Program-made: the position numbers and the translations under genes
In this document: in pieces, positions 9,933 to 29,816 of the stretch
Position numbering within the stretch: position 1 is the stretch's first letter
Layout: every line of letters begins with the position of its first letter
Assembly (NCBI GenBank): GCA_964021785.1
Contig: CAXIAX010000001.1
Coordinates: forward strand, 3,368 to 67,367
DNA length: 64,000 bases
Direction: 5' to 3'
From: an uncultured Flavobacteriales bacterium
Lineage (GTDB): Bacteria; Bacteroidota; Bacteroidia; Flavobacteriales_D; CAJJDF01
The notes under the pieces: model-generated
What the model was told of the DNA's origin: nothing
What the model saw: only the letters and a program-made list of their open reading frames with translations
Database searches by the model: none

Positions 9933-9953
9933 CAAAGTCTAATAAATACCGCA

Positions 9954-12900
9954 ATGAAGTTTATAATTACATTTTTGTTTTCATGTTTTGCCTTTTTATC
10001 TGGTACATCACAATGTCTAGAAATTACAAGTATTTTTGTTAATTCTTGTGGTACAGTAGAAGGACAAAATGAGATGTTTACGTTTAAAACGGGTACGAGT
10101 GATATTTATGTTCATGATATTACTGTAAACTGGCCAAGTAATAGTTTTCTTAATTGGTGTACTAGTGCAACTACGGCAAGCACTACGGCTTATTTTAACT
10201 CTACGGTTGTTTCGGGATGTGGACTTTTAATAGAGCCACTTAACGATACTATTCCTGCGGGATCCAAAGTAATAGTAATTACATCTACCAGTGTTAGTTT
10301 AACCAATAATAGTTTTTCTAACCTTGCCGATACTATGTATGTGTTATACCAATGTAGTGGTAATACAGCTGGTCATTTTGGGAATTCACCTTCAGGATCT
10401 AGAACTTTAGTAGTTTCGGTAACGGGAACATGCTCAGGTTCTACAAGTGCAAGTTATACGGGTGCTATTCCAAATGTAAATGGCGCAACTGCAGTTTTTG
10501 ATGCATCAGGAAATGTATCTTATGTGAATAATGGATGTAATGCTCCTGTGGTAACAAGAAACACAGATTGGGATTTTCCGGCAAGGATTTGTAAGGATTA
10601 TGGAACAATATTATTAGACACAACTTTAAGTTCACTTGCTACTTCAGGAGGTACATGGAGTGGACCAAGAGTTACAGGAAATACCTATAATTCTGGATCT
10701 TACTTAGGGTTAGATTCTATAACTTACCAATTGTCTTCTTCCAATTCTTGCTCTAGTTTAGATAGCACAATTGTTTTTACTGTTTATAAACCAAAAGTAG
10801 ATTCTTTCTCATTTCAATCTTGCACCCCAATATGGGTTAATGGTATTTCTTACTCTTCTGACACTGTATTCTCAGATACGGTTGCAAGTAGTAATCCTTT
10901 TCAGTGTGATTCTATGATTTTTGTTCAAATTATCATTGGAAGTTATGTATTAGATTCTAGTTATTTTGCTAGTTGCGATTCTGTATTGGTAGATGGAAAT
11001 TCATATAAAAATGATACGCTAATAAGAGATACAGTTTCTGGAGCAGGAACTACAAATACTATTGATACTATTTTGCATACTGGATTCGAGAATTCTGAAA
11101 GTTGGAACAATCACAGTTCAGGAAACTGGACAGAAACAGATGTAAATGGAATTTGGAGCGGCTCAGGGATGTACGCCAATATGGGAAGTACCAATAATGG
11201 AACTAGAAAAATTGGGATGAATGATGTGGGTGATTACATAGAATTACCACTTGTTAATAACCCTACTAGTTTATCTTATTATGATAGAATAAATTCTTCT
11301 TCCACAAATTTAAATGTATTTGCAATTCAGTATAATAACGGAACCAGTTGGGTAACGCTTCAGTTAGATACATGTACTCATACTAATTATCAACTTGTAA
11401 ATGTAGATTTGACTAGCTTAACAGGTCAAACCGGAGTTCAATTAAGAATTTATAGAACTCAGGATAATCGTTCAGGTTATATTGACGACTTAACCGTATA
11501 TGGTACAACCATAGCCACAACTCAAAGTTGTGATACAATTAAGGTGATAGAAGTAAAAATCTTAAGACCAACTACCTTTACTCAGGTTTCCAGTTCTTGC
11601 GATAGTGTAGTGAGTGTAACAGGAAAGATTTTCAAAACAAGTGGAACTTATCAGGATACAATAGTTAATTCTGCAAGGTGTGATTCTATTATTACCTATA
11701 ATGTAACAATCAATTCGGTAACTTCTTCTACTCAGGTTTCCAGTTCTTGCGATAGTGTAGTGAGTGTAACAGGAAAGATTTTCAAAACAAGTGGAACTTA
11801 TCAGGATACAATAGTTAATTCTACAGGTTGTGATTCTATTATTACCTATAGTGTAACAATCAATTCGGTAACTTCTTCTACTCAGGTTTTAAATTCTTGT
11901 GACAGTGTTGTAAGTGCAACAGGAAAGGTATTTAAATCAAATGGAACTTACCTAGATACAATAATAAATACTTCAGGTTGTGATTCTGTAATTACTTACA
12001 ATATAACAATAAATTCAGCTACTACTTCTTCTCAATTAGTCACTTCTACAGATAGTATAATTAGTGTAACGGGAAAAATATTTAAGGTTTCGGGAACTTA
12101 TTTGGATACCATACCTAATTCTAATGGATGTGATTCTATTCTGACTTATAATGTTGTTATTAGTTCAACAACTACGTCAACACAAGTAGTTGCATCTTGC
12201 GATAGCATAATTAGTGCAAATGGAAAAGTTTTTAAATCATCAGGGATTTATTCTGACACAATAATTAATGGACATGGTTATGATTCAATAATCACTTATA
12301 ATGTGACAATAAATACTGCAACATCATCTACGCAAAACTCAGTTTCATGTGATAGTGTAGTGAGTGTAACAGGTAAAATTTACAGAACTTCTGGTGTTTA
12401 TCAAGATACAATTACAAATGGAAAAGGGTGCGATTCTGTAATTACTTATGCTGTAACTATAAATACCAGAACCTATTCTAATCAAAATTTGGCCTCTTGT
12501 AATCAAGTAGTAAGTGCATCAGGTAAAATATTTGCAGCATCTGGTAATTATTTAGATACAATTGTTAATTCTGCAGGTTGTGATTCTATTATTCTATATT
12601 CCGTTACTATAAGAAAACCCACATCCTCTATTCAAAATGAAACTTCTTGCGATAGTGTAGTGAGTGCATCAGGCAAAGTATATAAAACAAATGGTAGATA
12701 CCTAGATACAATCGTTAATTCTGCAGGTTGTGACTCCATACTTATTTATAATGTTTTAATAAATTCTAAAAGAACTTTAGATATAGGAAGTGACACAATT
12801 ATTTGTGGGAACACTCCATTTTTTCTTTCAGCCCCTGGGTATTCAGATTATGTTTGGAACACTGGAGATACAACTTCTTCGATCCGTGTAAGCACTTCGG

Positions 12901-13475
12901 GATTGTATACATTATCCGTATATGGATCCAATTGTCCAATTCAGGATTCTGTATTGGTACAGTTTGTCGATTTACCATCAGCAAGTTTTGGGAAAGATAC
13001 CGCTTTGTTTTGCGGGCAAAACATTGTACTTGTCGCCAATAATTCAATGCCAGGTTTCTATACACTTGTATGGCAAGATGGAAGTACTCAAGATTCTTAT
13101 CCAGTAAACAGTCCAGGTGTTTATTCGGTATTATATTCTGCTCCAAATGGATTGTGCTCTGTAGAGTACAGTATAAATGTTACATACAATTGTGATTTGT
13201 TCATTCCCAATTCTTTTTCTCCAAATGGAGATGGGTTAAATGATGAGTTTGTGCCTTATTCTCATAACGAATTAGACCGTTTCGAGTTACAAATATTTAA
13301 TAGGTGGGGAGAATTACTATTTACATCAACAAATAGTGCAGAGGGATGGGACGGAACTTTTTTGAATGAAAAAGCGCAGCAAGGAGTTTACATTTGGAAA
13401 TTGAAATATGATTTCTCTAATGATGCTGCAATCAAAACAGAATTGAAATTTGGTCATGTAAATTTGGTTAGATAA
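9954..13475 (+). CDS. Large repeat-rich cell-surface protein (putative adhesin) with a T9SS type-B (gliding-motility-associated) C-terminal domain
   Basis: Signal peptide MKFIITFLFSCFAFLSGTSQ. Eight tandem 50-aa Cys-containing repeats. The C-terminus IPNSFSPNGDGLNDEFVPY...FELQIFNRWGELLFTS...GWDGTF...GVYIWKLKY...GHVNLVR fits the type-B sorting-domain pattern. Confidence 0.9.
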   Translation: MKFIITFLFSCFAFLSGTSQCLEITSIFVNSCGTVEGQNEMFTFKTGTSDIYVHDITVNWPSNSFLNWCTSATTASTTAYFNSTVVSGCGLLIEPLNDTIPAGSKVIVITSTSVSLTNNSFSNLADTMYVLYQCSGNTAGHFGNSPSGSRTLVVSVTGTCSGSTSASYTGAIPNVNGATAVFDASGNVSYVNNGCNAPVVTRNTDWDFPARICKDYGTILLDTTLSSLATSGGTWSGPRVTGNTYNSGSYLGLDSITYQLSSSNSCSSLDSTIVFTVYKPKVDSFSFQSCTPIWVNGISYSSDTVFSDTVASSNPFQCDSMIFVQIIIGSYVLDSSYFASCDSVLVDGNSYKNDTLIRDTVSGAGTTNTIDTILHTGFENSESWNNHSSGNWTETDVNGIWSGSGMYANMGSTNNGTRKIGMNDVGDYIELPLVNNPTSLSYYDRINSSSTNLNVFAIQYNNGTSWVTLQLDTCTHTNYQLVNVDLTSLTGQTGVQLRIYRTQDNRSGYIDDLTVYGTTIATTQSCDTIKVIEVKILRPTTFTQVSSSCDSVVSVTGKIFKTSGTYQDTIVNSARCDSIITYNVTINSVTSSTQVSSSCDSVVSVTGKIFKTSGTYQDTIVNSTGCDSIITYSVTINSVTSSTQVLNSCDSVVSATGKVFKSNGTYLDTIINTSGCDSVITYNITINSATTSSQLVTSTDSIISVTGKIFKVSGTYLDTIPNSNGCDSILTYNVVISSTTTSTQVVASCDSIISANGKVFKSSGIYSDTIINGHGYDSIITYNVTINTATSSTQNSVSCDSVVSVTGKIYRTSGVYQDTITNGKGCDSVITYAVTINTRTYSNQNLASCNQVVSASGKIFAASGNYLDTIVNSAGCDSIILYSVTIRKPTSSIQNETSCDSVVSASGKVYKTNGRYLDTIVNSAGCDSILIYNVLINSKRTLDIGSDTIICGNTPFFLSAPGYSDYVWNTGDTTSSIRVSTSGLYTLSVYGSNCPIQDSVLVQFVDLPSASFGKDTALFCGQNIVLVANNSMPGFYTLVWQDGSTQDSYPVNSPGVYSVLYSAPNGLCSVEYSINVTYNCDLFIPNSFSPNGDGLNDEFVPYSHNELDRFELQIFNRWGELLFTSTNSAEGWDGTFLNEKAQQGVYIWKLKYDFSNDAAIKTELKFGHVNLVR
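11581..12780 (+). repeat. Eight in-frame tandem 150-bp repeats (50-aa modules) inside the adhesin gene
   Basis: Unit starts fall at 11581, 11731, 11881, 12031, 12181, 12331, 12481 and 12631, an exact 150-nt period. Units 1 and 2 differ at only a handful of bases. The consensus module is SCDSVVSVTGKIFKTSGTYQDTIVNSxGCDSIITYNVTINSxTSSTQ. Confidence 0.95.
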
Positions 13476-16468: not shown

Positions 16469-17278
16469 ATGAATAAAACTATAGTACTAATCCCGCATTA
16501 TAATAATCTAACAGATTTGTGCAAAACATTAAATTCTATCAAACATAAAGATGGAATTGATGTGCTTGTAGTGGATGATGGAAGTGCTATAGATCAAAAG
16601 CCAAGTTTAAAAGTTCTAGAAGATGAGTTGAACCCAAGAGTGAATATTGAAATCTTGAGGTTAGAAAACAACTATGGAATTACGGAAGCATTAAATTATG
16701 GTTTGGATTACATTCTAAAGCAAAGGAAACATAAGTTTGTTGCAAGGATAGATTGTGGAGACGTTTGCGTATCCAATAGATTTAAAATTCAAGAAGATTA
16801 CTTAATTAAGAATAAAAATATTGATTTGGTTGGTTCATGGGTGAATTGGATCGATTCAGATTCAGGGGAACAAGTTTTTGCTAAAAAACCACCAGTTTCT
16901 CATAAGAAAGTAAAAAAACAAATGACAGTAAGGTGCAGTGTGATTCACCCTTCGTCTATGTATCGTTTATCTGTGGTAGATACATTAGGTAAATACCCTA
17001 AGCAATATGAAGCGGCCGAAGATTATGCTTACTTTTTTGATATAGCTAATAATGGAAAAGCAGCTAATATTCCTAAGTTCCTTACTAGTGTAGAGAATAA
17101 TCCTAAAGGGATTTCTTTGAAGAAAAGAAGACAACAGAGTAAAAGTAAATTAAAAGTGATTCTAGATCATAGCCCTAAAAATTTGAATTTATTATACAGT
17201 GTGCCATATAATCTTGTCTTGATGAATATGCCAACTTCCACTGTGTTGAAAATGAAAATGAAAATTTTTAAGAATTAA
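16469..17278 (+). CDS. Family 2 (GT-A) glycosyltransferase
   Basis: IVLIPHYNN...VLVVDDGS N-terminal Rossmann-like signature and the later acidic RIDCGD motif. Confidence 0.8.
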   Translation: MNKTIVLIPHYNNLTDLCKTLNSIKHKDGIDVLVVDDGSAIDQKPSLKVLEDELNPRVNIEILRLENNYGITEALNYGLDYILKQRKHKFVARIDCGDVCVSNRFKIQEDYLIKNKNIDLVGSWVNWIDSDSGEQVFAKKPPVSHKKVKKQMTVRCSVIHPSSMYRLSVVDTLGKYPKQYEAAEDYAYFFDIANNGKAANIPKFLTSVENNPKGISLKKRRQQSKSKLKVILDHSPKNLNLLYSVPYNLVLMNMPTSTVLKMKMKIFKN

Positions 17279-18357
17279 TGGTAATAGTTCATGTAACAGA
17301 ACCTTTTGCTACCGGAATTAATACTTTTTTACAAGAATTAATTTTTAGCATGCCCGAATATGAACATATCATAATTCATGGAGAGAGGGATGATACAAGA
17401 GACATAAACGAAATCAAATTTGAGTATAAAGGGAAAGTGAAGTTCATTAAATGGGAACATGCACACAGAGAAATTAGTATTGTAAAAGATATAAAAGCTT
17501 ATTTTCATTTGAGAAAAATACTAAAATCTATCGATTTTGATGTGTTACACCTACATTCTTCTAAAGCTGGAGTTTTAGGAAGATGCATAGGCTTGAAAAG
17601 AAAATACAAGAATATAGTTTATACACCCAATGCAGCCTCTTTTTTGAGGACAGATATTTCTAAATTAAAAAGGAAAGTATATACTCTTATCGAGAAATTT
17701 TCAAATTTATCAGGAGCGCAAATAGTTAGTTCTTCCAATTCGGAATATGTAGCCTATAAAAATATAGGAATACAAAGTAAGATTATTCAAAATGGAGTAA
17801 CTATATCTAAAGAAAATCAGGAGATAGAATCTCAAGATGGTAATTTCAATATTGTTTTTTGTGGAAAAGTTACTGTACAGAAAAATCCAGAGTTGTTTAA
17901 TGAAATAGCACTTTTTTATAAGGATATACCTAACGTTAAATTTTACTGGATAGGAGATGGAGAAATGAAGGAATCACTTACTAGTGATAATATTCAAATA
18001 ACTGGATGGCAGAAAAAGAATTTCATTTATAGTATTTTAGCCAAATCAGATCTTTATTTATCTACTTCATCATGGGAAGGGTTGTCAATTGCAACCATAG
18101 AAGCTTCAGCATTTGGTCTGCCATTAGTTTTAAGCAGGTGTGTGGGGAATCAAGATATGGTACTTAAAGATTATAACGGATTTTTATTTAGTTCTAAAGC
18201 CGAAGCAATAGAAAGAATAGAAATTTTAAGAAACAACAAAGGTCAAAAAGATCAAATTTCTCAAAATTCAAAAACAAACTACAACAAACAATTTGGTAAT
18301 TATAGATGTGGATTGGAATATAAAAAATTATACCTTGAGATAACAGATCACAAATAA
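17278..18357 (+). CDS. Family 4 (GT-B) glycosyltransferase
   Basis: 359 aa. The C-terminal-half motif SSWEGLSIATIEASAFGLPLV is the E-x7-E signature of GT4 enzymes. The start overlaps the previous stop (TAATG). Confidence 0.8.
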   Translation: MVIVHVTEPFATGINTFLQELIFSMPEYEHIIIHGERDDTRDINEIKFEYKGKVKFIKWEHAHREISIVKDIKAYFHLRKILKSIDFDVLHLHSSKAGVLGRCIGLKRKYKNIVYTPNAASFLRTDISKLKRKVYTLIEKFSNLSGAQIVSSSNSEYVAYKNIGIQSKIIQNGVTISKENQEIESQDGNFNIVFCGKVTVQKNPELFNEIALFYKDIPNVKFYWIGDGEMKESLTSDNIQITGWQKKNFIYSILAKSDLYLSTSSWEGLSIATIEASAFGLPLVLSRCVGNQDMVLKDYNGFLFSSKAEAIERIEILRNNKGQKDQISQNSKTNYNKQFGNYRCGLEYKKLYLEITDHK

Positions 18358-18374
18358 TAAAATCGTAAGAACTT

Positions 18375-19634
18375 ATGAATAGAAAGAAGCTCATATTATG
18401 TCTTACTTTGTTGATGATTTTTTTTCATCTTACTTGGACGGTTAATTTCACCAATGTTGCTATTGGTTTGTTAGCATTAAGCATTCTTTTAGATAAAAGA
18501 ATAGGGATTAAAATAAGAAAGCTAATTAGCACGAGTCAATTCTGGATCTTAATATCACCTTTTGTAGTTTTTAGCTTGTCTGCTCTTTATTCTTCTGATG
18601 GTCTTAGAGCTTGGAAAGAGATAGAAATAAAACTTCCATTACTTATTTTTCCCTTTATTTATGGACTTGCACCAATGTCTGAGAAATACAGAGATTTAGT
18701 ATTTAAGTTTTTCATTTTAATTACAATTTTAATCCCAGTCATTGGATTTATAAGTCAATTAGGTACTTATTTTGAAACAAAGGATTCAGGTTATTTTTAT
18801 AATGATCATTTAGTACATTATGCAGGAAAAAAGCAAGCAGCTTATTTTGGATTGTATGCTAATTTTGCACTTGTTGGTGTGTTTTATTTTTGGCAAAAGA
18901 TTAGTATAAAAACTAATCTTCAAAAAATAACTCTAGCATCTGCCTTTTCATTTTTGTTGATTATTCAGTATTTATTAGCCTCAAGAATGGCTTTGTTAAT
19001 TATGTTCTTGGTTATAGTTGGATTTTTAATAGTCCAAATTTTTACAAATACTTCCAGGAAACAAATATTATCAATGCTAATTGGAGCAGCTTTGGTCTCA
19101 ATAGGCTTGATTGTTTTATTTCCTAAAGTGATAAAAAGATTTAATAGTATAACACATACAGATTACCAGTTTGATAATACAAATCCAATCAATCATTTTA
19201 ATGGTGAGATAAAAGCGGAAAATTGGAATGGATTAAATACGAGACTTGCCTTGTGGACTTGTGCTTGGGAGCAAATAGAAGAGAAGCCTTTTTTTGGAAC
19301 AGGTATTGGTGATGTGCAAAATGATTTAGTGAAAAAGTATCAAGAGAAAAATTTTATTTTTGCTTTAGAAAGTAATTTTAATTCTCATAATCAATATTTG
19401 GATATTATGTTATCCAATGGGATTGTCGGGTTCTTTTTGTTTGTATGTTTCATTCTATATATTCTATATTTAGCAATAAAAAACAAGAGTTGGTTTTTAG
19501 CGGGAGTTGTAGTAATTGTTGCAATGTCCTGTCTTACAGAAAATATATTGAGCAGGAATCAGGGAGTAGTTGTTTTTATTGTATTTTTGTCAATGTTGCT
19601 TTTTTCAGAAAAAGAGACTATTAAAAAGATTTAA
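18375..19634 (+). CDS. O-antigen ligase/polymerase-family (Wzy_C-type) polytopic membrane protein
   Basis: 419 aa with about 10-12 hydrophobic helices. A large loop is followed by FGTGIGD...NSHNQYLDIMLSNGIVGFFLF, which resembles the O-antigen-ligase-family signature. Confidence 0.65.
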   Translation: MNRKKLILCLTLLMIFFHLTWTVNFTNVAIGLLALSILLDKRIGIKIRKLISTSQFWILISPFVVFSLSALYSSDGLRAWKEIEIKLPLLIFPFIYGLAPMSEKYRDLVFKFFILITILIPVIGFISQLGTYFETKDSGYFYNDHLVHYAGKKQAAYFGLYANFALVGVFYFWQKISIKTNLQKITLASAFSFLLIIQYLLASRMALLIMFLVIVGFLIVQIFTNTSRKQILSMLIGAALVSIGLIVLFPKVIKRFNSITHTDYQFDNTNPINHFNGEIKAENWNGLNTRLALWTCAWEQIEEKPFFGTGIGDVQNDLVKKYQEKNFIFALESNFNSHNQYLDIMLSNGIVGFFLFVCFILYILYLAIKNKSWFLAGVVVIVAMSCLTENILSRNQGVVVFIVFLSMLLFSEKETIKKI

Positions 19635-19638
19635 TAAT

Positions 19639-21708
19639 ATGAAGGTTTTATTTAAACATGCAAAGTTGATTTTTATAATTTTTACAATTATAAATGTTGG
19701 CTTGACTCTGCTATTTTACAATACAAAATATTTTGATGTAATAATAAAGTTATTCGCAATTGAGTTGGTTATTTTATTGATGTTTATTTCTATTGTTCTT
19801 TATAAATGGATAAATGAATTATTTATTAAAATTAAAGAAGAAAATTTCAATTCAAATGTAAAGTTAGAGCAGCTTCAATCTGATTTTAATTCATTTTATT
19901 CGATTTTTAAAGAAGCACAATATTCAGATAAGCTGGAGGTGTTGGATAAAGCAATGAATTCGATAGGAAATGAAGTAGTGAGTAACCGTGAAATTATTCA
20001 AGAGCAAGCAAGAATAAATCTAGAGAGATTAGAAGCGCAATCGGAGAGCTTAGCTTACCAACTGGTAAAGATTGAAAGCCAAGAGCAAAATAGTTTAAAA
20101 CAAGAAGGTATACTAGAAAGATTGTCTGTTGAGTTAAAAGAGCAAGTAAATAAGGCCGATAGTCAATTGAAATTATTGGAGGCACAAGCAGTAAAAGTTG
20201 CAAGGCAAATAGAACTTTCTGATAATTTAACTAATGAAACAGGAAAGCAATCTACTTATCTTGAGACTCAATCAGATGTTCTAAATAAGCAAATTCAGTA
20301 TTTGGAAACTCAATTTGTAAGGTTTGATGAGCAAGAACAGTTAATAAAATCACAGTCTGCATCAATAATAGAGCATCAATCAAAAGATAAAGAGGATCAA
20401 TTAAGTAAGTTTGATTTTCAAGCGAAGTTGATTGAATTACACAATGAAAAAGTAGATAGATATTTGGGGCAATTGACAGAACAGACTAATATGCTAAATG
20501 ATCAAATGAAGTTTTTGGAAGGTCAATCAATCAGATTTGACGAACAAGAGCAATTAATAAAAACTCAAACCCTTGCAATTATTGAACAACAGTCAAAAGG
20601 GAGAGATGTTGAGCTAGGGAAACTTAACGAACAAATGAGTTTGATAGAGGCTCAGAACCAAAAGATAGAGACTCAAAAAGAAATGTTAATCAAACAATTT
20701 GATGCAATAAGTAGTCAAAAAAATATTTTGGAAAGTCAATCGGATAAAATTGCTAATCAAACTCAAATCTTGAACTCAAGTAATAATTCGTTTAGTGAGG
20801 AACTCAAACAACTGCAAGCACGTACAGTTGAGATTAATAAGCAAACTCAATTGTTAGGAGGGCAGTCAAGTAAACTAAATAGTCAAACAGATGAATTGAG
20901 TGGTCAACTTGAAAAATTAGAATTAAGTCGTGTTACTGCACACAGTCAGGTTGAACAACTAGAAAATAATAATAAGTTTATTGAGATTCAATTGAGTAAG
21001 CTGGAGGATCAAAATAAGAAATTGAATGATTTCAGTTTGACATTAACTCCTAAAAAGTATGAGGAGAGAAAGTTTTTGGAAAAACAATTAGATAGAACTT
21101 ACGATAGAATTGATGCCTTGATGTCCATTCATAATTTGTTGAAATTAAATGCTCCTCTGCCAATTATGCATAACTGGAGAGTAAGTTCAGATTATGCACA
21201 TGAAGTTCTTTCTTGTTTTATTGAAACTAAAGGGACAGTAATTGATATAGGTAGTGGGATTTCAACTTTATTATTTGGGTATGCAGTTAAAAGAAATGGA
21301 AATGGTAAAGTGATTTCTTTAGAGCATTCTAAAGAGTATTTTGAAAAAACAAAGGCACTGATTAAGTTACATCAATTAGAAGAATATTGTGAATTATATT
21401 ATTGTCCTTTAATAGAATATAATATTGAGGGGAAAAAATGGCTTTGGTATGACGTTAAAAATGTTGCATTACCAAATAAGGTATCTTTAATATCTATTGA
21501 TGGACCTCCAGGAGATACTCAATATTTGGCTAGATATCCAGCTTTAACAATTTTGAAAGAAACCATAGGTAAGGGAACTGTAATATATTTGGATGATGGG
21601 AATCGAGAACAAGAACGAGAAATTGCAAAACAATGGACTAAGAAGTTTAATTTAAATACTGTTGAATCAAATGATTATAAAGGTTATTTTAAGATGATTA
21701 AAATTTAA
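19639..21708 (+). CDS. Membrane-anchored long coiled-coil protein with a C-terminal class-I SAM-methyltransferase-like domain
   Basis: I use the ATG at 19639 (MKVLFKHAK), since the tracked 19570 start overlaps the upstream gene. Two hydrophobic helices come first, then ~430 aa of Q/E/K/L-rich heptad-like sequence with a recurring L-E-x-Q beat. A C-terminal globular domain follows, with VIDIGSGISTLLFGYA, LISIDGPPG and VIYLDDGNR. Confidence 0.6.
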   Translation: MKVLFKHAKLIFIIFTIINVGLTLLFYNTKYFDVIIKLFAIELVILLMFISIVLYKWINELFIKIKEENFNSNVKLEQLQSDFNSFYSIFKEAQYSDKLEVLDKAMNSIGNEVVSNREIIQEQARINLERLEAQSESLAYQLVKIESQEQNSLKQEGILERLSVELKEQVNKADSQLKLLEAQAVKVARQIELSDNLTNETGKQSTYLETQSDVLNKQIQYLETQFVRFDEQEQLIKSQSASIIEHQSKDKEDQLSKFDFQAKLIELHNEKVDRYLGQLTEQTNMLNDQMKFLEGQSIRFDEQEQLIKTQTLAIIEQQSKGRDVELGKLNEQMSLIEAQNQKIETQKEMLIKQFDAISSQKNILESQSDKIANQTQILNSSNNSFSEELKQLQARTVEINKQTQLLGGQSSKLNSQTDELSGQLEKLELSRVTAHSQVEQLENNNKFIEIQLSKLEDQNKKLNDFSLTLTPKKYEERKFLEKQLDRTYDRIDALMSIHNLLKLNAPLPIMHNWRVSSDYAHEVLSCFIETKGTVIDIGSGISTLLFGYAVKRNGNGKVISLEHSKEYFEKTKALIKLHQLEEYCELYYCPLIEYNIEGKKWLWYDVKNVALPNKVSLISIDGPPGDTQYLARYPALTILKETIGKGTVIYLDDGNREQEREIAKQWTKKFNLNTVESNDYKGYFKMIKI

Positions 21709-21716
21709 AAGAAAAT

Positions 21717-23057
21717 ATGATTGAAATAAAGAAAATATTGATTTTATCTAATTTATGTATAGGAGGGGTCGAAACTTTTTCGATTTATTTAGCAAAAGCC
21801 TTAAAGCAAAAAGGATATGATGTTATTTTTATAAATCAAGATGAAATAAGTAGAGGAGATGAAAGATTTTCTGAATCATTAGAATTAACTCTTATCAATG
21901 ATAATATTCCTATTATATCAGTTAAAGATTCGTTTAATGAAAAATATTTCTCATCAAATTCTAGGTATATAATTCCTTTTTATGCGACTAAATATTTAGA
22001 AGCATTTTATAGTAATGTTTTGAAAAACAATTTGCTTCCAGTTCTTTATGGTTATATCCATAGTGATGGAGCATATTATTATGATAATGCATTCCTATAT
22101 GAATCAATAACTTCAAATTTTATTTGTGTTTCAGAATCTATTGAAGTGAATCTTTCAGAAATTTTAAATGAAAAAGAGAAGTTGACATACAAAAAATGTC
22201 CGTTACTTTTAAAGGCTGATGCTCAAAACAATTCAAATCAATCCAATCACCTTAAATTATTATTTGTTGGTAGAATTAATGATGAACCGAAAGGAGTTTT
22301 TAAATTAGTTGAAATAGCTAGTTATTTAGAAGAAAATGGAGTGCCTTTTGTTATGGATATAGTAGGAAATGGGCTTGACATTGAAGAGCTAAAAGAACGT
22401 TTTTTAAAAGCAAAAATAACATCAAAAATAACCTTCGTTACTGATGCAAATACGCCAGAGAAAGTAGTGCCTTACTACGAGTTTGCTGATGTTTTATTGA
22501 TTCTTTCCAGTTATGAAGGAGGGCCTTTAGTGTTATATGAGGCAATGGAGTTTGGAACTATCCCCGTTGGATTCAATGTTGGCGTGATGAATCAATTAAT
22601 CGAAAATGGGATTAATGGCTATGTGTTTGAACATAACCAATTTAATCTTTTGTTAAAGCAGATTAAAATTTTGTCAAAAAATAAAAATAAATCAAAGATA
22701 AAGAAAAAGGCAATAAATACCGTTAGGAATTTAAATATGGGTATGGATGACTACATAAGCTTTGTAGAGGAATTATTTACTCAAAAAACGCAAAAGCAAT
22801 ATGCAGATGTGGCAATTCGTAAAACGAATTCAAAGATAAAGTGGAAAGACAATGATTTACAGTCTTGGATTTCTAGAATACTTAGCGAGAGTACATTGAA
22901 GAGGAATCATATTTTTCATTATTTATTTTTAACCCAAAATAATATTGAATTAAAAAAACAATTGGAGGTTCAAAAACATTATCAAAGTGTATATGATGAT
23001 ATGCCTATGTTTTGGAAAAAGTTAGGGTCAATAATAAGAAAATTTAAGAGTCTATGA
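21717..23057 (+). CDS. Family 4 (GT-B) glycosyltransferase with a coiled-coil / conserved basic C-terminal tail
   Basis: SSYEGGPLVLYEAMEFGTIPV is the E-x7-E motif. The C-terminus reads ...QKHYQSVYDDMPMFWKKLGSIIRKFKSL. Confidence 0.8.
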   Translation: MIEIKKILILSNLCIGGVETFSIYLAKALKQKGYDVIFINQDEISRGDERFSESLELTLINDNIPIISVKDSFNEKYFSSNSRYIIPFYATKYLEAFYSNVLKNNLLPVLYGYIHSDGAYYYDNAFLYESITSNFICVSESIEVNLSEILNEKEKLTYKKCPLLLKADAQNNSNQSNHLKLLFVGRINDEPKGVFKLVEIASYLEENGVPFVMDIVGNGLDIEELKERFLKAKITSKITFVTDANTPEKVVPYYEFADVLLILSSYEGGPLVLYEAMEFGTIPVGFNVGVMNQLIENGINGYVFEHNQFNLLLKQIKILSKNKNKSKIKKKAINTVRNLNMGMDDYISFVEELFTQKTQKQYADVAIRKTNSKIKWKDNDLQSWISRILSESTLKRNHIFHYLFLTQNNIELKKQLEVQKHYQSVYDDMPMFWKKLGSIIRKFKSL

Positions 23058-25132
23058 AAATAAGTATAATTATACCGGTTTATAATGTAGAAAAATACAT
23101 TGTTGATTGCTTGAGTAGTATTTATGAAGTCGAAAATCAATCGGATTTTGAGATAATAATTGTAGATGATTGTTCTCCTGATAATTCAGTAAGTCTCGTT
23201 AGAAATTTTATTAAGGAAGTGAATGTTGACAATATTAAAATTGTAAAGCACGAAATAAATAAAGGGTTAGGAGCGGCTAGAAATACAGGGGTACTGCATG
23301 CTAAGAATCCATATGTTTGGTTTTTAGATTCTGATGATGCAATAGATCCTGTGCAATTCACTCAATTAATTGAAAGTACTTCAGAAGATTTTGATGTTCT
23401 TCTAATGGGAGTTGCAGAGTGTGATGCTAATTTAAATTTCAAAAAAGAATATTTGAAGTATGATGAGTTTGTTGTGGATGATTACTCCTTACAGTATAAA
23501 AATAAAAAGTTAAAGCAATTAGATGTTGTAGCTTGGAATAAAATAATTAAAAGAGATTTATTTATATTAAATTCCTCACTTACTTTTGGAGAAGGCGTTC
23601 TTAATGAGGATGAAGTATTTTCTTTATTGTTATGTAAATATGCAAAAAAAGTAATCTTTAAGGAGGAATTAGTTTACTTATATAGAATTAGAGAAAATAG
23701 TATAACAACATCAACAATAAGTAATCAGTTTTTTGATTCTTGGGAAGTTAATTTTAAACAAGCCCTACTTTTTTTTCACGACTATAAGTTAGAGTTTTGG
23801 CAGGATTGGTTTTTAGAAAAAATTCAAATTTTTAATAGAAAATACAGTTTTTCGCCAGAACAATTAGTAATTCTGAAAAAATTGTTGACTCCATACTATT
23901 CCATGTATCCAGAAAGATTGTGGAATAACAATTGGAGATTTAGAGAAAATACAACCTTTTTTGAGGACTGGTTCAATATCTATGAATTGAAAATTGAAGA
24001 GACTCCATTAGTTTCAGTTATAATACCAACCTATAAAAGACCTGAAAACTTAATAAGAGCATTGCAATCAGTTCTAAATCAAAGCTATAAAAATATTGAG
24101 GTAATCATTATTAATGATACAGGAAATGTTGATGATTATCAGAGTAAATATCATGACTTATTACTTCCATTTTTAAATAAGGTGACTTATGTTCAATTAA
24201 CCCAAAATATGGGGGGGGGAGCAGCAAGAAATATTGGAATAAATGAAGCGAATGGTAAATATATTTCTTTTTTAGATGATGATGATTCTTATTGTGTAGA
24301 TAGGATTAAGAATGCAGTGAATGAAATTCAAAAATACTCGGTTGATGAAGTTTGGGGGGTGTACTGTGGATATAAAAATAATGAAAGTGGTAGTGTAAAT
24401 AATGAGTTTTATTCAGGAGATTTAACATATGATATATTAAATTTAAATTATGCTGAATTTTCATTAAATACAGATACTGTTCTGATTAAAAAGGAATTTT
24501 TAATGTCTTATGATATCCGATTTAACCCGAAATTGAGAAGGCATCAAGATTTAGATTTGTTTTTAAAGTTATTCAGGCATGGCTATGTAATTGGTTACAA
24601 AAACATTGATGTTATAATTAGACCTGAAAAAACTGAAATTGGTAATTGGTTAAATGATGAGGTTATGCACTCAACAAAAAGATATTTTTTACATCAGCAT
24701 AAAGATGTTGTAGAAACGTTTTTAAATCAAATTCAAGAGGAAATATATAACATTCAATGGAACAATGTTCTTCATTATTATTTAGGAAATGAAAAGATTG
24801 AAAGATTTAAAAATTTTGTGGTAAAGTCGAAATTTAACGAAGTTGATTCGCATGAATATTTTTTTCTAGTTCATCTAATTAATAAGTTGGAAATTGCTGA
24901 ACCTGAAGAGAGTAAAGAGCTTATTCAAAAACAAGATAAAGCTAAACGAGAGATGAAATTAGATAATGAAACTCTTAACTCTAAGGTTCAAGACTTGGCC
25001 TTATTAAATAAAGAGCTTAATTTAAAAGTTGAAGATTTATTAAGTCAAAAAAATTGGTATGAAAACACCTACGAAAAGATGCCTATGTGGTGGAAAAAAA
25101 TGGGTGCATTAGTAAGAAAAATAAAGAATTGA
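23054..25132 (+). CDS. Two-domain glycosyltransferase (GT2 + GT2) with a coiled-coil / conserved basic C-terminal tail
   Basis: There are two GT-A signatures: ISIIIPVYNVEKYI...IIIVDDCSPDNS and VSVIIPTYKRPENL...VIIINDTG...LDDDD. The C-terminus reads ...QKNWYENTYEKMPMWWKKMGALVRKIKN. The start overlaps the previous stop (ATGA). Confidence 0.85.
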   Translation: MKISIIIPVYNVEKYIVDCLSSIYEVENQSDFEIIIVDDCSPDNSVSLVRNFIKEVNVDNIKIVKHEINKGLGAARNTGVLHAKNPYVWFLDSDDAIDPVQFTQLIESTSEDFDVLLMGVAECDANLNFKKEYLKYDEFVVDDYSLQYKNKKLKQLDVVAWNKIIKRDLFILNSSLTFGEGVLNEDEVFSLLLCKYAKKVIFKEELVYLYRIRENSITTSTISNQFFDSWEVNFKQALLFFHDYKLEFWQDWFLEKIQIFNRKYSFSPEQLVILKKLLTPYYSMYPERLWNNNWRFRENTTFFEDWFNIYELKIEETPLVSVIIPTYKRPENLIRALQSVLNQSYKNIEVIIINDTGNVDDYQSKYHDLLLPFLNKVTYVQLTQNMGGGAARNIGINEANGKYISFLDDDDSYCVDRIKNAVNEIQKYSVDEVWGVYCGYKNNESGSVNNEFYSGDLTYDILNLNYAEFSLNTDTVLIKKEFLMSYDIRFNPKLRRHQDLDLFLKLFRHGYVIGYKNIDVIIRPEKTEIGNWLNDEVMHSTKRYFLHQHKDVVETFLNQIQEEIYNIQWNNVLHYYLGNEKIERFKNFVVKSKFNEVDSHEYFFLVHLINKLEIAEPEESKELIQKQDKAKREMKLDNETLNSKVQDLALLNKELNLKVEDLLSQKNWYENTYEKMPMWWKKMGALVRKIKN

Positions 25133-26079
25133 AATTTATCTTAGCCATAACGACCTATAATCGACTAGATTTTTTATCTAGTTGTATTAGATCCTGGAAT
25201 GAAACTAGGTCTCAGAAAGCAAACTGGGAAATTATTGTGGCAGATGATGGCTCTGAGGATGGAACCATAGAGTATGTAGAATCTTTAAAACTAGAAAATA
25301 CCAAAATTACCCTTTTAAGAAATTATAGAATTGGTGTTCATCAGCAAATGAATACAATCATAGAACTATTAGAAGTAAAAGAGTTTGATTTTTGTTTTAA
25401 AATAGATGACGACATTAAATTTTTAAAATCAGGTTGGGATATGCTTTATTACGACCATTATTTAAAAACTGGTCAGGATCATCTAGTCTTTTTTGAAAAA
25501 AAATGGGAGAAGAAACAACATTTAAAAAACAAGGTAAATTCAGATAAAGGAGAAGGGAATGTTTCTTTGCTTAACGTTCATGGATTCTTTTATACACTTA
25601 CAAAAGATATAGTTAAAAAGGTGGGTTATTTTGACTATCGAGAGTTTTATTTTCGAGGAATGGGTCATGTAGATTATACAGCAAGATGCTGTAGGGCTGG
25701 ATTTAACAATATACATACACCTTTTGATGTAAAAAACAGTAATGAGTTTATATCTGCATATCATGAAGAATACTCTTCAGCAATTAAGCATGATTGGGTA
25801 AGTTATTATGATGAGTTTTTTCGAATGAAAAAAGTAGATAAAATTTTAGAAGAAGATAGAGTTTATATCGGAAAAAGTGAGGTTAATTTAAAAGCATATT
25901 TTTTGTTTAAAGATAGGCTCATAAATGCAATGTCCAATAAGCTTGATAAATTTGAAGAAGAAAAGGCAGAAATAGTTAATTGGTATGAAAATCAGTATAA
26001 TGATGTGCCGAAATGGTATTTGAAACTAGGTAAAATATTTAAGTTGAAATTACTGATTAAAAAAGGATTGATAAAATAA
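25129..26079 (+). CDS. GT-A-fold glycosyltransferase-like protein with the same conserved C-terminal tail
   Basis: KFILAITTYNRLDFL...WEIIVADDGSEDGT...KIDDD. The C-terminus reads ...VNWYENQYNDVPKWYLKLGKIFKLK. The start is ambiguous: GTG at 25087 (tracked) or TTG at 25129, which overlaps the upstream TGA as TTGA and gives a canonical MKFIL... N-terminus. Confidence 0.7.
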   Translation: MKFILAITTYNRLDFLSSCIRSWNETRSQKANWEIIVADDGSEDGTIEYVESLKLENTKITLLRNYRIGVHQQMNTIIELLEVKEFDFCFKIDDDIKFLKSGWDMLYYDHYLKTGQDHLVFFEKKWEKKQHLKNKVNSDKGEGNVSLLNVHGFFYTLTKDIVKKVGYFDYREFYFRGMGHVDYTARCCRAGFNNIHTPFDVKNSNEFISAYHEEYSSAIKHDWVSYYDEFFRMKKVDKILEEDRVYIGKSEVNLKAYFLFKDRLINAMSNKLDKFEEEKAEIVNWYENQYNDVPKWYLKLGKIFKLKLLIKKGLIK

Positions 26080-28247
26080 TGAATTATTGGCTATTAACTA
26101 CTGAGTTTCCGCCCATTCATGGAGGAGGAATAAGCACTTATTGTTGGCATACAGCCAAGATGATGATTCAGCATGGCCATCAAGTAACGGTCTTTGTAAA
26201 TGATTATTCTGTAAAAAGCATTCAACATGAATCTCCTCAAAATAATTTAACTTTAGTAAGATTTAATCCTGTTTTGGTTTCAAAAGGCAAGGCATTGGGG
26301 ACAAATGCAAGATTAAGTTTGGAGTTTGCAAATGTTGTTGAACAAGAAATGAAACAGAAAGGAGTTCCTGATGTTTTGGAAACTCAAGACTACGCAGGAA
26401 TTGGATATTACACTTTGCAAAAAAAACAATTGCTTTATCCTCTTTTTAGAGATCTGAAAGTGGTGATGACCATGCATGCTCCTAGTTTTTTGTATTTTGA
26501 ATTTAATCAAGTTCCTTTATATAAATTTCCCGAATATTGGATAGGTGAAATGGAGAAAGCATCCATTAGGATGGCAGATTTGGTTATTTCCCCATCTAAT
26601 TATTTGATTGAAGAATTAAATTCAAGGATGAACTTGAAAGAGAAGAACCCCATTCGAATTTTTAATCCTTATGTAAGTGAGATTGCAAGAGGAGAAGTTC
26701 CTGTATATGAGGAAGGAGATCTTGTTTTCTTTGGAAAATTAACTCCGCAAAAAGGAGTATTAGAAATGCTTTCTTATTTGAAAAAAATGTGGGATAACGG
26801 TTTCGATAAAACCATTTCTATCATTGGAGGTGGAGCTCATTATTTTTATCCGGTTCAAGAAGATATGTCTCTGTATGTCAAAAAAATATATGCAGCTTAT
26901 ATAAAAAAAGGATTGATAAAATTTGAAGGGAATATGCCTCCAAATGAATTGAATGAAAGGCTTAGAAAAGCACACGTAGTTATCACGCCCAGTATTGTAG
27001 ATAACTTGCCTTATGCTGTCTTGGAAGCAATGGCAATGGGTAAAATTGTTTTGTCGTCTTCTAACGGAGGGCATACCGAGGTAATGGAAACCGGGGAGAA
27101 TAGTTTTGTGTTTCATCATGAAATTAAGAATAGTTTTGAGTCTACCTTAACTAACATTTTATCTAAACCTAGGCAAGAGTTAACGGAAATTGGAAAAAAG
27201 GCTCAAGAGTCTGTTTTTACTGCAACCAATTATGAAACAGTTTATACCCAAAAGCAGATTGAATTAGCTAAGCTAGTTGCTAATAAAGAGAAAAAGGTTG
27301 AGTTTGATTTTATTGAAATAATAAATAAAAAGGAAACAGTAGAAAGCATAAAAGAATCAACCAAAGATTTATTAAGTATAGTCATTCCTTATTACAACAT
27401 GGGCGCTTACATAGAAGAAACTTTGGATTCTTTGATGAAAGTCCAACAAGTAAAACTTGAAATTATTATAATAAATGATGGGTCTACCGATCAGGCAAGC
27501 CGCAGTAAACTAGAGGAAATTGAAAAGAAATACCCTGTAACTATTTTTCATAAAGAAAATGAAGGGTTATCCATAGCAAGAAATTATGGAGCGGATAGAA
27601 CTAATGGAGAATTTATGGCTTTTCTAGATGCAGATGATACAGTGGAGCCATCTTATTATTCTAAAGCTTTAGAAGTATTGAAACAATACAATAATGTAAG
27701 TTTTGTAGGGTGTTGGGCTCAGTATTTTGAAAACAGTAAGGATATTTGGCCAACGTTCAATCCAGAACCACCTTATTTGTTGGTTCATAACATGATAAAT
27801 AGTAGTGCTTTAGTTTATAAGAAACAAGATTTTATTTCTTTTGGAAAGAATGATGCTAAGTTTATCTACGGAATGGAAGATTACGACAGTGTGATTTCTA
27901 TGGTGAAAAAAGGAGCAAGAGGAGTTTCTTTGCCAGAAACTTGGTGGAATTATAGAATAAGAAATAATTCTATGGCTCAGTCCTTTACTAAGGACAAAGA
28001 GCTATATTTGTACAGATTAATAAGTGAAAAACATAAGCAATTTTTTGCATCATACGCAGATAGAATTTCCAATTTGCTAAATTATAATGGATCAGGGATT
28101 TCATTTGATAATCCCACAAGAGATAGAAGTAAATTTGATAGTGCCAAATATGGGAAGTTAACAAATAGCATTGTTCGAATATTGAAAAGTAACAAGTGGT
28201 TAAGAAATATTGCAAAAAAAATATACCGAAAAATTTATAACAATTAA
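26079..28247 (+). CDS. Bifunctional glycosyltransferase (N-terminal GT4 + C-terminal GT2)
   Basis: The N-terminal half carries the ...VDNLPYAVLEAMAMGKIV GT-B motif. The C-terminal half carries LSIVIPYYNMGAYIEETL...IIIINDGSTD...LDADD. The architecture resembles the multi-domain serotype-specific transferases of ABC-dependent O-antigen loci. Confidence 0.85.
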   Translation: MNYWLLTTEFPPIHGGGISTYCWHTAKMMIQHGHQVTVFVNDYSVKSIQHESPQNNLTLVRFNPVLVSKGKALGTNARLSLEFANVVEQEMKQKGVPDVLETQDYAGIGYYTLQKKQLLYPLFRDLKVVMTMHAPSFLYFEFNQVPLYKFPEYWIGEMEKASIRMADLVISPSNYLIEELNSRMNLKEKNPIRIFNPYVSEIARGEVPVYEEGDLVFFGKLTPQKGVLEMLSYLKKMWDNGFDKTISIIGGGAHYFYPVQEDMSLYVKKIYAAYIKKGLIKFEGNMPPNELNERLRKAHVVITPSIVDNLPYAVLEAMAMGKIVLSSSNGGHTEVMETGENSFVFHHEIKNSFESTLTNILSKPRQELTEIGKKAQESVFTATNYETVYTQKQIELAKLVANKEKKVEFDFIEIINKKETVESIKESTKDLLSIVIPYYNMGAYIEETLDSLMKVQQVKLEIIIINDGSTDQASRSKLEEIEKKYPVTIFHKENEGLSIARNYGADRTNGEFMAFLDADDTVEPSYYSKALEVLKQYNNVSFVGCWAQYFENSKDIWPTFNPEPPYLLVHNMINSSALVYKKQDFISFGKNDAKFIYGMEDYDSVISMVKKGARGVSLPETWWNYRIRNNSMAQSFTKDKELYLYRLISEKHKQFFASYADRISNLLNYNGSGISFDNPTRDRSKFDSAKYGKLTNSIVRILKSNKWLRNIAKKIYRKIYNN

Positions 28248-29030
28248 ATGGGAAATAAATTAGCGTTAAAACAAACCGACAACAGATTAGAGCGAATTTG
28301 GTTGTTGGCAAAAATAGAATTTAAACTTCGTTATTATGAGAATAAATTAGGTTTACTCTGGGCATTAATTCAGCCAATGAGTCAGTTGGTAATTTATTAT
28401 ATTTCATTTACTTATATAATGAAAAGTAATGTGCCTAATTTTGCTATTTATTTGTTTGCAGGAATTATTATGTGGCAATTTTATAATGAAGCTACTGGAG
28501 GTTTGTTAAAAATATTACGGACAAAAAAATACCTATACGAATATTCAAACATGTCTAAATTAGAGATTTACCTTGCTAGTTTGATAAGTATAACTTTAGG
28601 TTTTTTGTTTAATTTTTCAATCCTATTACTCATTTTATTATTCGGAGGAATTGGATGGAGTTGGACCTTGATTTTTGTTCCTATCATATTAATTCTATTA
28701 ATGGTTTTTTGCTTGGGACTGGCATTAATATTGTCAAATATATATGTGATAGCTAAAGATGTAAATCAAATATGGCCTCTGGTATCTTTGTTTTTAATGT
28801 GGTTGTCGCCTGTATTTATTGATGTAAGATTATTGGAAAGCAATTTGCCACTGATTAAATATTTTAACCCAATGTTTGGGTTAATGAAAAACTTTAGAGA
28901 AGTGGTGATGTATCACAATCCACCTGATTTTTGGTTGCTGTTAATTTCATTATTTCACGCCCTTCTTTTTTTCGGAATAGGATGGTTATTATTAAAAAAA
29001 ATTGGAGGAAAAGCTTCAGAAATTTTATAA
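28248..29030 (+). CDS. ABC-2-type polysaccharide export permease (Wzm/TagG/KpsM-like)
   Basis: 260 aa with six hydrophobic helices. The N-terminal ...FKLRYYENKLGLLWALIQP matches the ABC-2 permease start pattern, and the gene immediately precedes its ATPase. Confidence 0.85.
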   Translation: MGNKLALKQTDNRLERIWLLAKIEFKLRYYENKLGLLWALIQPMSQLVIYYISFTYIMKSNVPNFAIYLFAGIIMWQFYNEATGGLLKILRTKKYLYEYSNMSKLEIYLASLISITLGFLFNFSILLLILLFGGIGWSWTLIFVPIILILLMVFCLGLALILSNIYVIAKDVNQIWPLVSLFLMWLSPVFIDVRLLESNLPLIKYFNPMFGLMKNFREVVMYHNPPDFWLLLISLFHALLFFGIGWLLLKKIGGKASEIL

Positions 29031-29033
29031 ACT

Positions 29034-29771: not shown

Positions 29772-29816
29772 AGAATAAGTTTTGGTTAAGATAGAAGTGA
29801 AATTACAGTTTAAATT

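Follow-up and report, generated by a model that had tools for sequence, protein, structure and literature searches.

A gene of the 64,000-nucleotide window studied here (positions 3,368 to 67,367 of contig CAXIAX010000001.1, assembly GCA_964021785.1, from an uncultured Flavobacteriales bacterium) encodes a protein of 689 residues in which an N-terminal membrane hairpin is followed by a long helical spacer and a C-terminal O-methyltransferase. This protein, referred to below as the target, is encoded within a glycan locus together with an ATP-binding cassette (ABC) exporter of the Wzm/Wzt type. It is very probably a glycan O-methyltransferase that is anchored in the membrane and faces the cytoplasm. 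The reading that we favour, with a probability of about 0.45, is that its spacer serves as a ruler for the addition of a terminal methyl cap and thereby sets the length of the glycan; we infer both the capping and the ruler effect. This reading is preferred because it explains a long, helical and length-variable insert that was acquired specifically in ABC-exporter loci, and because sister loci contain a separate soluble Methyltransf_24 protein that might perform ordinary decoration. The target is a plausible, though unproven, new type among the enzyme-on-a-ruler proteins already known to cap surface polysaccharides and to determine their length.

Membrane anchor, catalytic domain and helical spacer

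An original prediction made for this gene had proposed a membrane anchor, a spacer and an S-adenosylmethionine (SAM)-dependent methyltransferase domain. This three-part architecture holds by Pfam, by an AlphaFold2 (AF2) model of the full-length protein and by Foldseek, and all the strings that had been quoted from the sequence, including VIDIGSGISTLLFGYA, LISIDGPPG and VIYLDDGNR, are present in the open reading frame (ORF) of the target. The ATG codon at 19639 is likely the start of the gene. It was preferred to the TTG codon at 19570, which opens a longer ORF running into the upstream gene, because only 4 nucleotides separate this ATG from the stop codon of the preceding Wzy_C gene and because the N-terminus that it yields, MKxL..K.., is common to the target and its orthologues.

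The two hydrophobic helices announced behind a basic N-terminus were confirmed at residues 10-27 and 34-55. The corresponding helices of the AF2 full-length model extend from 8 to 27 and from 29 to 68, and the hairpin is retained throughout the methyltransferase family. Lysines are found ahead of the first transmembrane (TM) helix (K2, K6 and K9) and past the second (K56, K64 and K66). Since these lysines flank TM1 and TM2, and since a SAM-dependent enzyme needs the cytoplasm, both ends of the hairpin are implied to be cytoplasmic, which therefore puts the enzyme at the membrane-far end of the protein. The inverted topology proposed earlier thus stands: with a TM anchor at the N-terminus and a distal enzyme, the target is WbdD-like in space and its domain order is reversed.

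The C-terminal domain is recognized by Pfam Methyltransf_24 (PF13578) with an E-value of 2.3e-6 and 28.9 bits, for a curated cut-off of 26.3. An AF2 model of residues 470-689, obtained from a family alignment of 121 sequences, displays a beta-alpha-beta core with a predicted local distance difference test score (pLDDT) of 96.8 and a predicted template modelling score (pTM) of 0.92. With Foldseek, this domain matched the cation-dependent, class I O-methyltransferases similar to catechol O-methyltransferase (COMT) in the PDB (E-value ~1e-8, TM-score ~0.6, probability 1.00), namely the Anaplasma O-methyltransferase (OMT) 4PCA, PaMTH1, the Bacillus cereus protein 3DUL and COMT itself. The COMT-like group was also matched by the family profile when searched against the PDB sequences (best E-value 4e-7). 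The SAM-methyltransferase domain that had been suggested for the C-terminus is therefore well founded, with a SAM-binding fold. WbdD was absent among the 60 of 65 matches listed for the family profile against all PDB sequences (E-value <=1), and it was absent from the top 50 Foldseek matches of both the domain model and the full-length model. Neither Pfam nor NCBIfam detected a kinase or any other domain in the target.

Throughout the family, Y604 and the motif D621-G-P-P are invariant. The residues S539-G540-x-S542-T543 (motif I), H563, D652 and D653 (at least 90% conserved), R656 and E659 are nearly invariant, as are W601 and W603, which flank Y604. These three aromatic residues are located in a beta-hairpin insertion that would suit a sugar substrate. 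The acidic residues D621 and D652/D653 lie where strands 615-620 and 643-652 end in the AF2 model. The COMT-type enzymes bind their metal at the ends of strands beta4 and beta5, and the model suggests that the methyltransferase domain is probably dependent on a divalent cation.

The spacer (residues 61-490) contains one proline and 10 glycines, and Q, L, E, K and S are abundant in it. Its hydrophobicity has a periodicity peak at 7.1 residues, the power of which was reached by none of 500 shuffles; a third harmonic is present at 2.35 and there is nearly no power at exactly 3.5. The heptad register was tracked solely by the hydrophobicity at position a. In this register, position a is occupied by L, I, F, V or M in 83% of heptads, position b is rich in Glu and position g in Lys, and position d is a Gln in 38 of 61 heptads (62%, compared with 14 +/- 4% and a maximum of 25% in shuffles). 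The AF2 monomer contains spacer helices at residues 76-147, 155-197, 203-243, 257-319, 326-405 and 411-466 (72, 43, 41, 63, 80 and 56 residues, respectively; pLDDT ~55-86), and the central region is accordingly modelled as helices and not as a disordered segment. Of the ~430-residue heptad-like coiled coil described in the original prediction, the helical character and a periodicity beyond that of shuffles are retained, but the canonical pattern with hydrophobic residues at both a and d is not, d being Gln.

Within residues 125-490 the register is broken only twice, by one-residue skips at positions 244 and 315. These skips lie 71 residues apart, which matches an internal repeat of 71 residues. 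In a diagonal scan, residues 174-317 align with residues 245-388 at an offset of 71, with 50 of 144 positions identical and an ungapped score of 215; the controls (composition and register-preserving shuffles) gave 48-49 +/- 7-8, with a maximum of 80. The identity reaches 20 of 29 positions in the core of the repeat. The internal duplication of ~75 residues reported earlier is consequently real as a repeat, but it takes the form of a tandem triplication of a 71-residue unit covering residues 174-388. No off-diagonal match was found by self-BLASTP of the target, and Tandem Repeats Finder did not pick up the 213-nucleotide repeat in the gene, the repeat being so old that its DNA copies are too diverged to be recognized. 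A single-alpha-helix (SAH) domain was considered for the spacer and rejected on composition only, no SAH predictor being used: Q, L, S and N are abundant, the sequence has a hydrophobic stripe, and E and K do not dominate.

The long-spacer clade and its glycan loci

The related loci were searched with alignments of 13 and of 9 sequences. A neighbour-joining tree of the catalytic domain shows that all the proteins with an expanded spacer are included in one Bacteroidota clade, among them sequences from Flavobacteriales metagenome-assembled genomes (MAGs), Brumimicrobium aurantiacum (N62), B. glaciale (IC156) and Fulvivirga. The closest relatives of the window protein come from Flavobacteriales (a MAG and Brumimicrobium). 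The sister group is a short-spacer clade (P0006-P0009), of which P0007 is found in a housekeeping context. In the long-spacer clade, the residues ahead of the catalytic domain, that is, hairpin plus spacer, number 138, 147, 252, 311, 315, 331, 345, 358, 369, 489 (window protein), 577 and 682; the spacers alone comprise from ~75 to ~620 residues. The length of the spacer thus differs among orthologues of a single clade of syntenic loci, as had been anticipated. It does not vary in steps of the proposed ~75-residue (in fact 71-residue) unit, and the orthologue spacers are dissimilar in sequence. The catalytic domains of the clade are 46-67% identical to that of the window protein. The spacers are nearly free of proline, ~30% of their residues are hydrophobic, and several have tandem repeats of their own, of 18 residues in L004 and L043, ~36 residues in L009, 11 residues in L046 and a longer unit in L045. 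Locus L045 encodes the longest member of the family (3548-6199; 883 residues), whose spacer of ~620 residues consists of many tandem units of ~56 residues with motifs such as ..SNKESEESIKSQLEEILK..HQKVEKNILSQLTNLLE..; its gene has Wzy_C upstream and a GT2 glycosyltransferase (GT) downstream.

The orthologue of L001 is split into a spacer part of 258 residues (9197-9973) and a methyltransferase of 248 residues (10001-10747). A related MAG with identical neighbouring exporter proteins has an intact ORF of 531 residues (L004, 9008-10603), and the split is probably an assembly or frameshift error within the 18-residue tandem repeats. A similar split occurs in L041/L050.

Concerning the exporter genes, Wzm, Wzt and the carbohydrate-binding module (CBM) of Wzt were looked for across the loci by single-sequence phmmer, a search of low sensitivity in which the Wzt_C query included the ATPase part, supplemented by Pfam scans. 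As far as flanking sequence exists, the gene order of the clade agrees with that of the window: Wzy_C lies upstream of the target orthologue in L001/L004, L043 and L045, and a GT4-GT2 protein, Wzm and a Wzt of 244-257 residues are found downstream in L001/L004, L005, L006 and L051. L002 is a Wzm/Wzt locus with polymerising GTs, its Wzt being frameshifted. In L007 and L009, GT and sugar-nucleotide genes were seen, and the flanks end ahead of any exporter. A second, soluble Methyltransf_24 protein of ~200 residues is encoded between GT2 and GT4-GT2 in L001 (16108-16719) and L002 (4625-5212) and is absent from the window locus.

In the window, all the genes of the glycan locus (16469-30836; Table 1) are on the same strand with minimal gaps. 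The context described in the original prediction was recovered by Pfam, with Wzy_C upstream of the target, multi-domain GTs downstream and then Wzm/Wzt. The target is the sole methyltransferase of this locus and the sole protein there with a long helical spacer. The GC content is of 28-30% in the locus and of 33-36% in its surroundings, which fits a horizontally exchanged, variable surface-glycan island, and the flanking genes, which encode an NA37 nucleoid protein on the upstream side and a PIF1-type helicase on the downstream side, are unrelated. A scan for sigma-70 promoters gave no enrichment, and the sigma-70 consensus is not applicable to Bacteroidota.

Several GTs of these loci end in a conserved tail, W-Y-x3-Y-x2-[LMV]-P-x-W-x2-K-x-G-x2-[FIL]-[RK], located at the extreme C-terminus and preceded by a short coil. 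The gene directly downstream of the methyltransferase carries this tail in 6 of the 8 readable long-spacer loci; in L005 and L009, where it does not, the tail is found on a GT further downstream. The tail-bearing enzymes are of the types GT4, GT2-GT2 and GT25-GT2, with in addition a multi-GT protein of 1111 residues. The motif was detected in 16 ORFs of the first ~40 loci and the window, all in long-spacer loci, to which later scans added L043 and L051. The regular expression missed the tail of the double GT2 of the window, which was added separately, and its other matches were found only in L042/L049, in an N-terminal hydrophobic stretch, and look like chance. A profile search with the motif gave one match among 5.8 billion proteins, the motif being too short to be informative. 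The tail may be a membrane-binding or docking element of the polymerising GTs; as a membrane anchor, it would place the GTs at the membrane, with the methyltransferase held away from it. The co-occurrence of tail and spacer does not constitute independent evidence, since the long-spacer loci are syntenic.

Outside the glycan locus, the window encodes a protein of 1186 residues with a CHU_C type IX secretion signal domain (9915-13475), which identifies the source as a member of the Bacteroidota. The region directly downstream of the locus (31058-37162) encodes a PIF1-like helicase with HTH_40, a WYL-HTH regulator and a HEAT-repeat/DNA_alkylation-like protein; an RNase_T exonuclease fused to GIY-YIG is encoded on the opposite strand.

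Table 1. Features of the target gene, of the glycan locus of the window and of the Wzt genes beside short-spacer relatives. Coordinates are those of the window unless a locus is named; residue numbers are those of the target.
Feature	Coordinates	Strand	Description
Target gene	19639-21708	+	689 residues: membrane hairpin, helical spacer, C-terminal O-methyltransferase; ORF, Pfam Methyltransf_24, AF2 full-length model
N-terminal membrane hairpin	19666-19803	+	TM1 and TM2 separated by a 6-residue loop; hydropathy windows
Helical spacer	19819-21108	+	residues 61-490; ~52 near-continuous heptads, pattern [LIF]-E-x-Q-x-x-K
Three tandem 71-residue units	20158-20802	+	residues 174-244, 245-315 and 316-388; each 10 heptads plus one skip
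Catalytic domain	21109-21705	+	residues 491-689; class I SAM-dependent COMT-like O-methyltransferase; motif I VIDIGSGIST
GT2	16469-17278	+	Pfam; first gene of the low-GC glycan locus
GT4	17278-18357	+	Pfam
Wzy_C membrane protein (O-antigen ligase family)	18375-19634	+	Pfam; same position in L001, L043 and L045
GT4	21717-23057	+	Pfam; short coil and conserved C-terminal tail
Double GT2	23054-25132	+	Pfam; short coil and conserved C-terminal tail
GT2	25087-26079	+	Pfam; short coil and conserved C-terminal tail
GT tail ends	22974-23054, 25049-25129, 25990-26076	+	C-termini of the GT genes 21717-23057, 23054-25132 and 25087-26079
GT4-GT2 bifunctional glycosyltransferase	26079-28247	+	Pfam; 722 residues; conserved in L001, L002 and L051
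Wzm (ABC2_membrane)	28248-29030	+	Pfam
Wzt	29034-29771	+	Pfam; 245 residues, nucleotide-binding domain (ABC_tran) only
NAD-dependent sugar epimerase/dehydratase	29817-30836	+	Pfam; last gene of the locus
CBM or extended Wzt beside short-spacer relatives	L003 2242-3120; L038 16385-17656; L012 332-1585		Wzt_C, or ~220-residue C-terminal extension without Pfam match

The methyltransferase family at large

The C-terminal 200 residues were used as query for the family searches, the full-length query being swamped by the low-complexity spacer. This query recovered 128 relatives, and searching 1.84 billion cluster representatives with a profile yielded 10,669 matches, of which 4,071 had an E-value <=1e-30. 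Nearly all of the top 150 profile matches have 230-330 residues. The common plan of the family (~250-300 residues) consists of the N-terminal hairpin, 10-40 linker residues and the methyltransferase domain, with nearly no spacer. The spacer-less members are currently annotated as "class I SAM-dependent methyltransferase" or "predicted O-methyltransferase YrrM".

GTs are present in about two thirds of the sampled family loci (24 of the first 37), so that the homologues are not found mostly outside glycan loci. For 25 further members, 117 immediate neighbours were considered, and the Pfam families seen most often among them were Glycos_transf_2 (14), Glycos_transf_1 (12), other methyltransferases (8), Wzx-type Polysacc_synt (7), ABC_tran (4) and sugar-nucleotide enzymes (4). 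In L003/L013, one contig found twice and labelled Chloroflexia, and in the unassigned metagenomic contig L038, the family member is adjacent to Wzm and to a Wzt with Wzt_C. In L012, from a Flavobacteriales MAG, it is preceded by wzm and a wzt of 418 residues. A terminal cap is expected in Wzt_C-bearing systems such as L003 and L038, and the family member of L003, L038 and L012 could add the cap there, although these loci also encode methyltransferases of other types (Methyltransf_23 and Methyltransf_11). The Duganella member is located in an exosortase exopolysaccharide (EPS) locus, and the family genes of L040 and L042 are outside glycan loci.

The family domain is also found in fusion proteins. 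A 2TM-methyltransferase-GT2 protein (545 residues) and a GT2-methyltransferase protein (581 residues) were detected, as well as a fusion to a multi-pass membrane region that resembles a Wzx-type flippase by eye and has no Pfam match. The metagenomic protein P0238 (2518 residues) contains TPR, an FkbM methyltransferase, the family domain, three GT2 modules and one GT4, and looks like a single-polypeptide glycan assembly line. On the basis of gene context and of these fusions, the family would be best described as membrane-anchored glycan O-methyltransferases at the cytoplasmic face.

Proposed role and comparison with known systems

In the mechanism that we propose for the target, the substrate would be an undecaprenyl-linked glycan made by the ABC-exporter locus. 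The hairpin would fix the protein in the inner membrane and the spacer would carry the methyltransferase away from it; the polymerising GTs probably act at the membrane, three of them possibly anchored by their basic-aromatic tails. Only a chain that extends as far as the distal enzyme would be O-methylated at its non-reducing end, and its extension would then be blocked. The capped chain would be exported by the CBM-less Wzm/Wzt and subsequently ligated by the Wzy_C protein. The length of the spacer would determine how long a chain must be before it can be terminated, and the gain or loss of tandem repeats would retune this length between lineages. Here we infer that the methylation is terminal and not internal, that the substrate is a sugar, and that the spacer is rigid and the protein oligomeric. 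The wider proposal, that a Bacteroidota lineage turned a membrane-anchored glycan methyltransferase into an adjustable ruler, without CBM checkpoint and by means of a non-canonical spacer built from repeats (heptads with Leu at a and Gln at d, or 18-residue units), is possible but not probable.

Several observations weigh against a ruler. The AF2 monomer splits the spacer into six helices, with short breaks of low confidence at glycine or polar sites. A continuous helix of 430 residues would span ~64 nm, against ~20 nm for the coil of WbdD (PMC5082667). The spacer is not a canonical coiled coil and a rigid rod of ~60 nm is unproven, because position d is Gln in the window protein and because the orthologues show a periodicity of 3.6 residues and Gly-containing repeats. 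As rigid rods, spacers of 430-620 residues would measure ~64-92 nm, about 3-4.5 times the length of WbdD. In 8 of 9 orthologue spacers the periodicity peaks at 3.60-3.65 and not at 3.5 (7.1 and 3.55 in the window protein), which fits amphipathic helices in straight bundles, solenoids or helices lying on a surface and is no proof of a rod; the Gly-rich repeats of 18 or 36 residues present in several of them could fold into a compact solenoid or act as a flexible leash. Among solved structures, the nearest are small-molecule catechol O-methyltransferases, with ~13% identity. Pfam scans detected no C-terminal CBM in the Wzt of the window, nor a Wzt CBM in any of the long-spacer loci examined, and exporters without a CBM are typical of the length control of O2a, which needs no terminator (PMC11231755). 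A CBM-less Wzm/Wzt is, on the other hand, able to export the capped O3a antigen (PMC11231755), and a cap is compatible with a CBM-less exporter since the O2a-type exporter also carries this capped chain. Finally, the commonest form of the family, which is spacer-less, also accompanies Wzx flippases, forms part of an exosortase EPS locus or stands alone. This spacer-less form is the ancestral one and, because of these Wzx, EPS and non-glycan contexts, the family as a whole is not a terminator family; its default activity may be the decoration of lipid-linked sugars and not termination.

The same observations lend themselves to a tethered decorating methyltransferase, which is possible although we do not consider it probable. 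Such an enzyme would methylate internal, primer or repeat-unit residues, with the spacer as a flexible or laterally extended leash reaching the distal parts of the cytoplasmic polymer, and the length of the glycan would be set by the coupling of export and polymerisation as in Klebsiella pneumoniae O2a. The CBM-less Wzt of all long-spacer loci agrees with this explanation, the O2a paradigm being one of length control without a terminator, as does the membrane-proximal default of a family also present in Wzx-type and EPS loci; the 3.6-residue periodicity and the Gly-containing repeats of the orthologues do not suggest a stiff heptad coil. Moreover, the methyltransferases PA5457 and PA5459 of the Pseudomonas aeruginosa common polysaccharide antigen (CPA), which are encoded in an ABC locus, do not act as rulers in the manner of WbdD (PMC3560663). 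However, a decorating enzyme does not require an anchor combined with a long spacer, and the soluble Methyltransf_24 proteins of L001 and L002 are the obvious candidates for such an activity. The insertion of the spacer is restricted to a clade in ABC loci, and its sequence, which is helical and amphipathic with a strong periodicity, speaks for a defined structure over a random leash.

The hairpin and spacer could instead organise a multi-GT polymerase complex as an assembly scaffold, for example by pairing with the short coils of the GTs. The methyltransferase would then be a passenger activity, and the length of the spacer would be largely neutral, drifting by repeat slippage. The presence of a coil and tail on the directly downstream gene in 6 of the 8 long-spacer loci, whatever the type of GT, is in line with such a scaffold, and so are the recruitment of the polymerase by WbdD through its membrane-proximal region and the dissimilar, repeat-rich spacers, which fit a weak constraint. 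We nevertheless consider a scaffold unlikely: the long-spacer loci are all syntenic and the co-occurrence may reflect common descent only, and neutral drift leaves unexplained why, along 250-620 residues, the spacers remain without proline and keep a helical and amphipathic character. It is very improbable that the target is a periplasmic, Wzz-like regulator of chain length, or a protein unrelated to glycans and present in the locus by coincidence. Two TM helices with a long coil superficially recall the polysaccharide co-polymerases. In Wzz, however, the TM helices flank the periplasmic coiled coil, whereas those of the target are adjacent, with a loop of 6 residues, and lysines are present at the N-terminus and past TM2; a SAM-dependent domain must, in addition, be cytoplasmic. 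The Wzz-like regulator was therefore rejected on topology, and the family is linked to glycan assembly by its synteny and its GT fusions.

Should the ruler reading be right, the terminator-on-spacer arrangement, as a way to control polymer length without a template, would have had two origins or more, in methyltransferases that are not related and whose domain orders are opposite and anchors different. The principle would then extend to the Bacteroidota, where ABC-dependent glycan assembly has hardly been studied, and a ruler could do without the Wzt CBM checkpoint, which current models hold to be universal for terminated chains. The orthologues form a natural length series, with a conserved catalytic domain preceded by 138-682 residues, in which the relation between this length and the size of the glycan is directly testable; two of the long-spacer organisms are cultured Brumimicrobium species. 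Even if the target is a decorating enzyme, a large uncharacterised family (the 4,071 representatives with an E-value <=1e-30) could be re-annotated as "membrane-anchored glycan O-methyltransferase". The architecture of the target was not found in the searchable literature, the coverage of which does not extend to the survey of terminators and CBMs by Mann et al. 2019 (Glycobiology).

In the terminated glycans of the ABC pathway, the enzyme that terminates the chain occupies the distal end of an elongated coiled coil, with the polymerase modules nearby, and the CBM of Wzt, present in all characterised terminated systems, admits capped chains only (PMC11231755). The coil of WbdD, the prototype of such terminators, keeps its methyltransferase-kinase ~200 A off the membrane, and a coil of altered length results in another modal chain length (PMC5082667); the membrane-proximal region of WbdD serves in addition to recruit its polymerase (PMC11231755). 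The target shares with WbdD (Escherichia coli O8/O9a; K. pneumoniae O5/O3) an ABC-transporter-dependent glycan locus; in both proteins a SAM methyltransferase is combined with a membrane element and a long helical spacer, the enzyme being at the membrane-far end. It differs by the reversed order anchor-spacer-enzyme and by its anchor, an N-terminal two-TM hairpin where WbdD has a C-terminal amphipathic helix. Its methyltransferase is of the Methyltransf_24/COMT-like type, without detectable similarity to WbdD beyond the generic class I fold, and it does not have the kinase domain found in WbdD of O9a. Its spacer has ~430 residues with Gln at position d, whereas WbdD forms a trimeric coil of ~200 A, and its Wzt is devoid of the CBM that reads the WbdD cap. 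Of the WbdD-like role suggested for the target by the original prediction, the ABC locus and the distal enzyme are retained; the lack of homology beyond the class I fold and of a CBM on Wzt weakens it. Membership of the WbdD family was rejected on the same grounds (no homology, no kinase, an N-terminal TM anchor, a reversed order and a CBM-less Wzt).

The K. pneumoniae protein ORF6(O7) uses a methyltransferase, as does the target. With WbbB (O12) and ORF7(O4), it belongs to the proteins composed of a terminator, a coiled coil and, optionally, a polymerase GT. These proteins differ from the target in that their terminator is N-terminal, without any TM segment, and that all are paired with a CBM-bearing Wzt; their catalytic folds are a CgnL-like methyltransferase with a kinase in ORF6(O7), a Kdo transferase in WbbB and a GT137 in ORF7(O4). 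The CPA methyltransferases PA5457 and PA5459 are, unlike the target, without anchor and spacer. COMT, PaMTH1, the Anaplasma OMT and 3DUL of B. cereus resemble the target in fold and in the region of the SAM-binding motif, but they are soluble enzymes with small molecules or proteins as substrates, whereas the family of the target has in addition a beta-hairpin insertion, W-x-W-Y-D, and the membrane anchor. The spacer-less members of the family itself have the same hairpin and a catalytic domain of 30-55% identity, in which Y604 and D-G-P-P do not vary and the residues of D-D-x2-R-x2-E are nearly invariant. These members have only 10-40 linker residues and hold their enzyme at the membrane.

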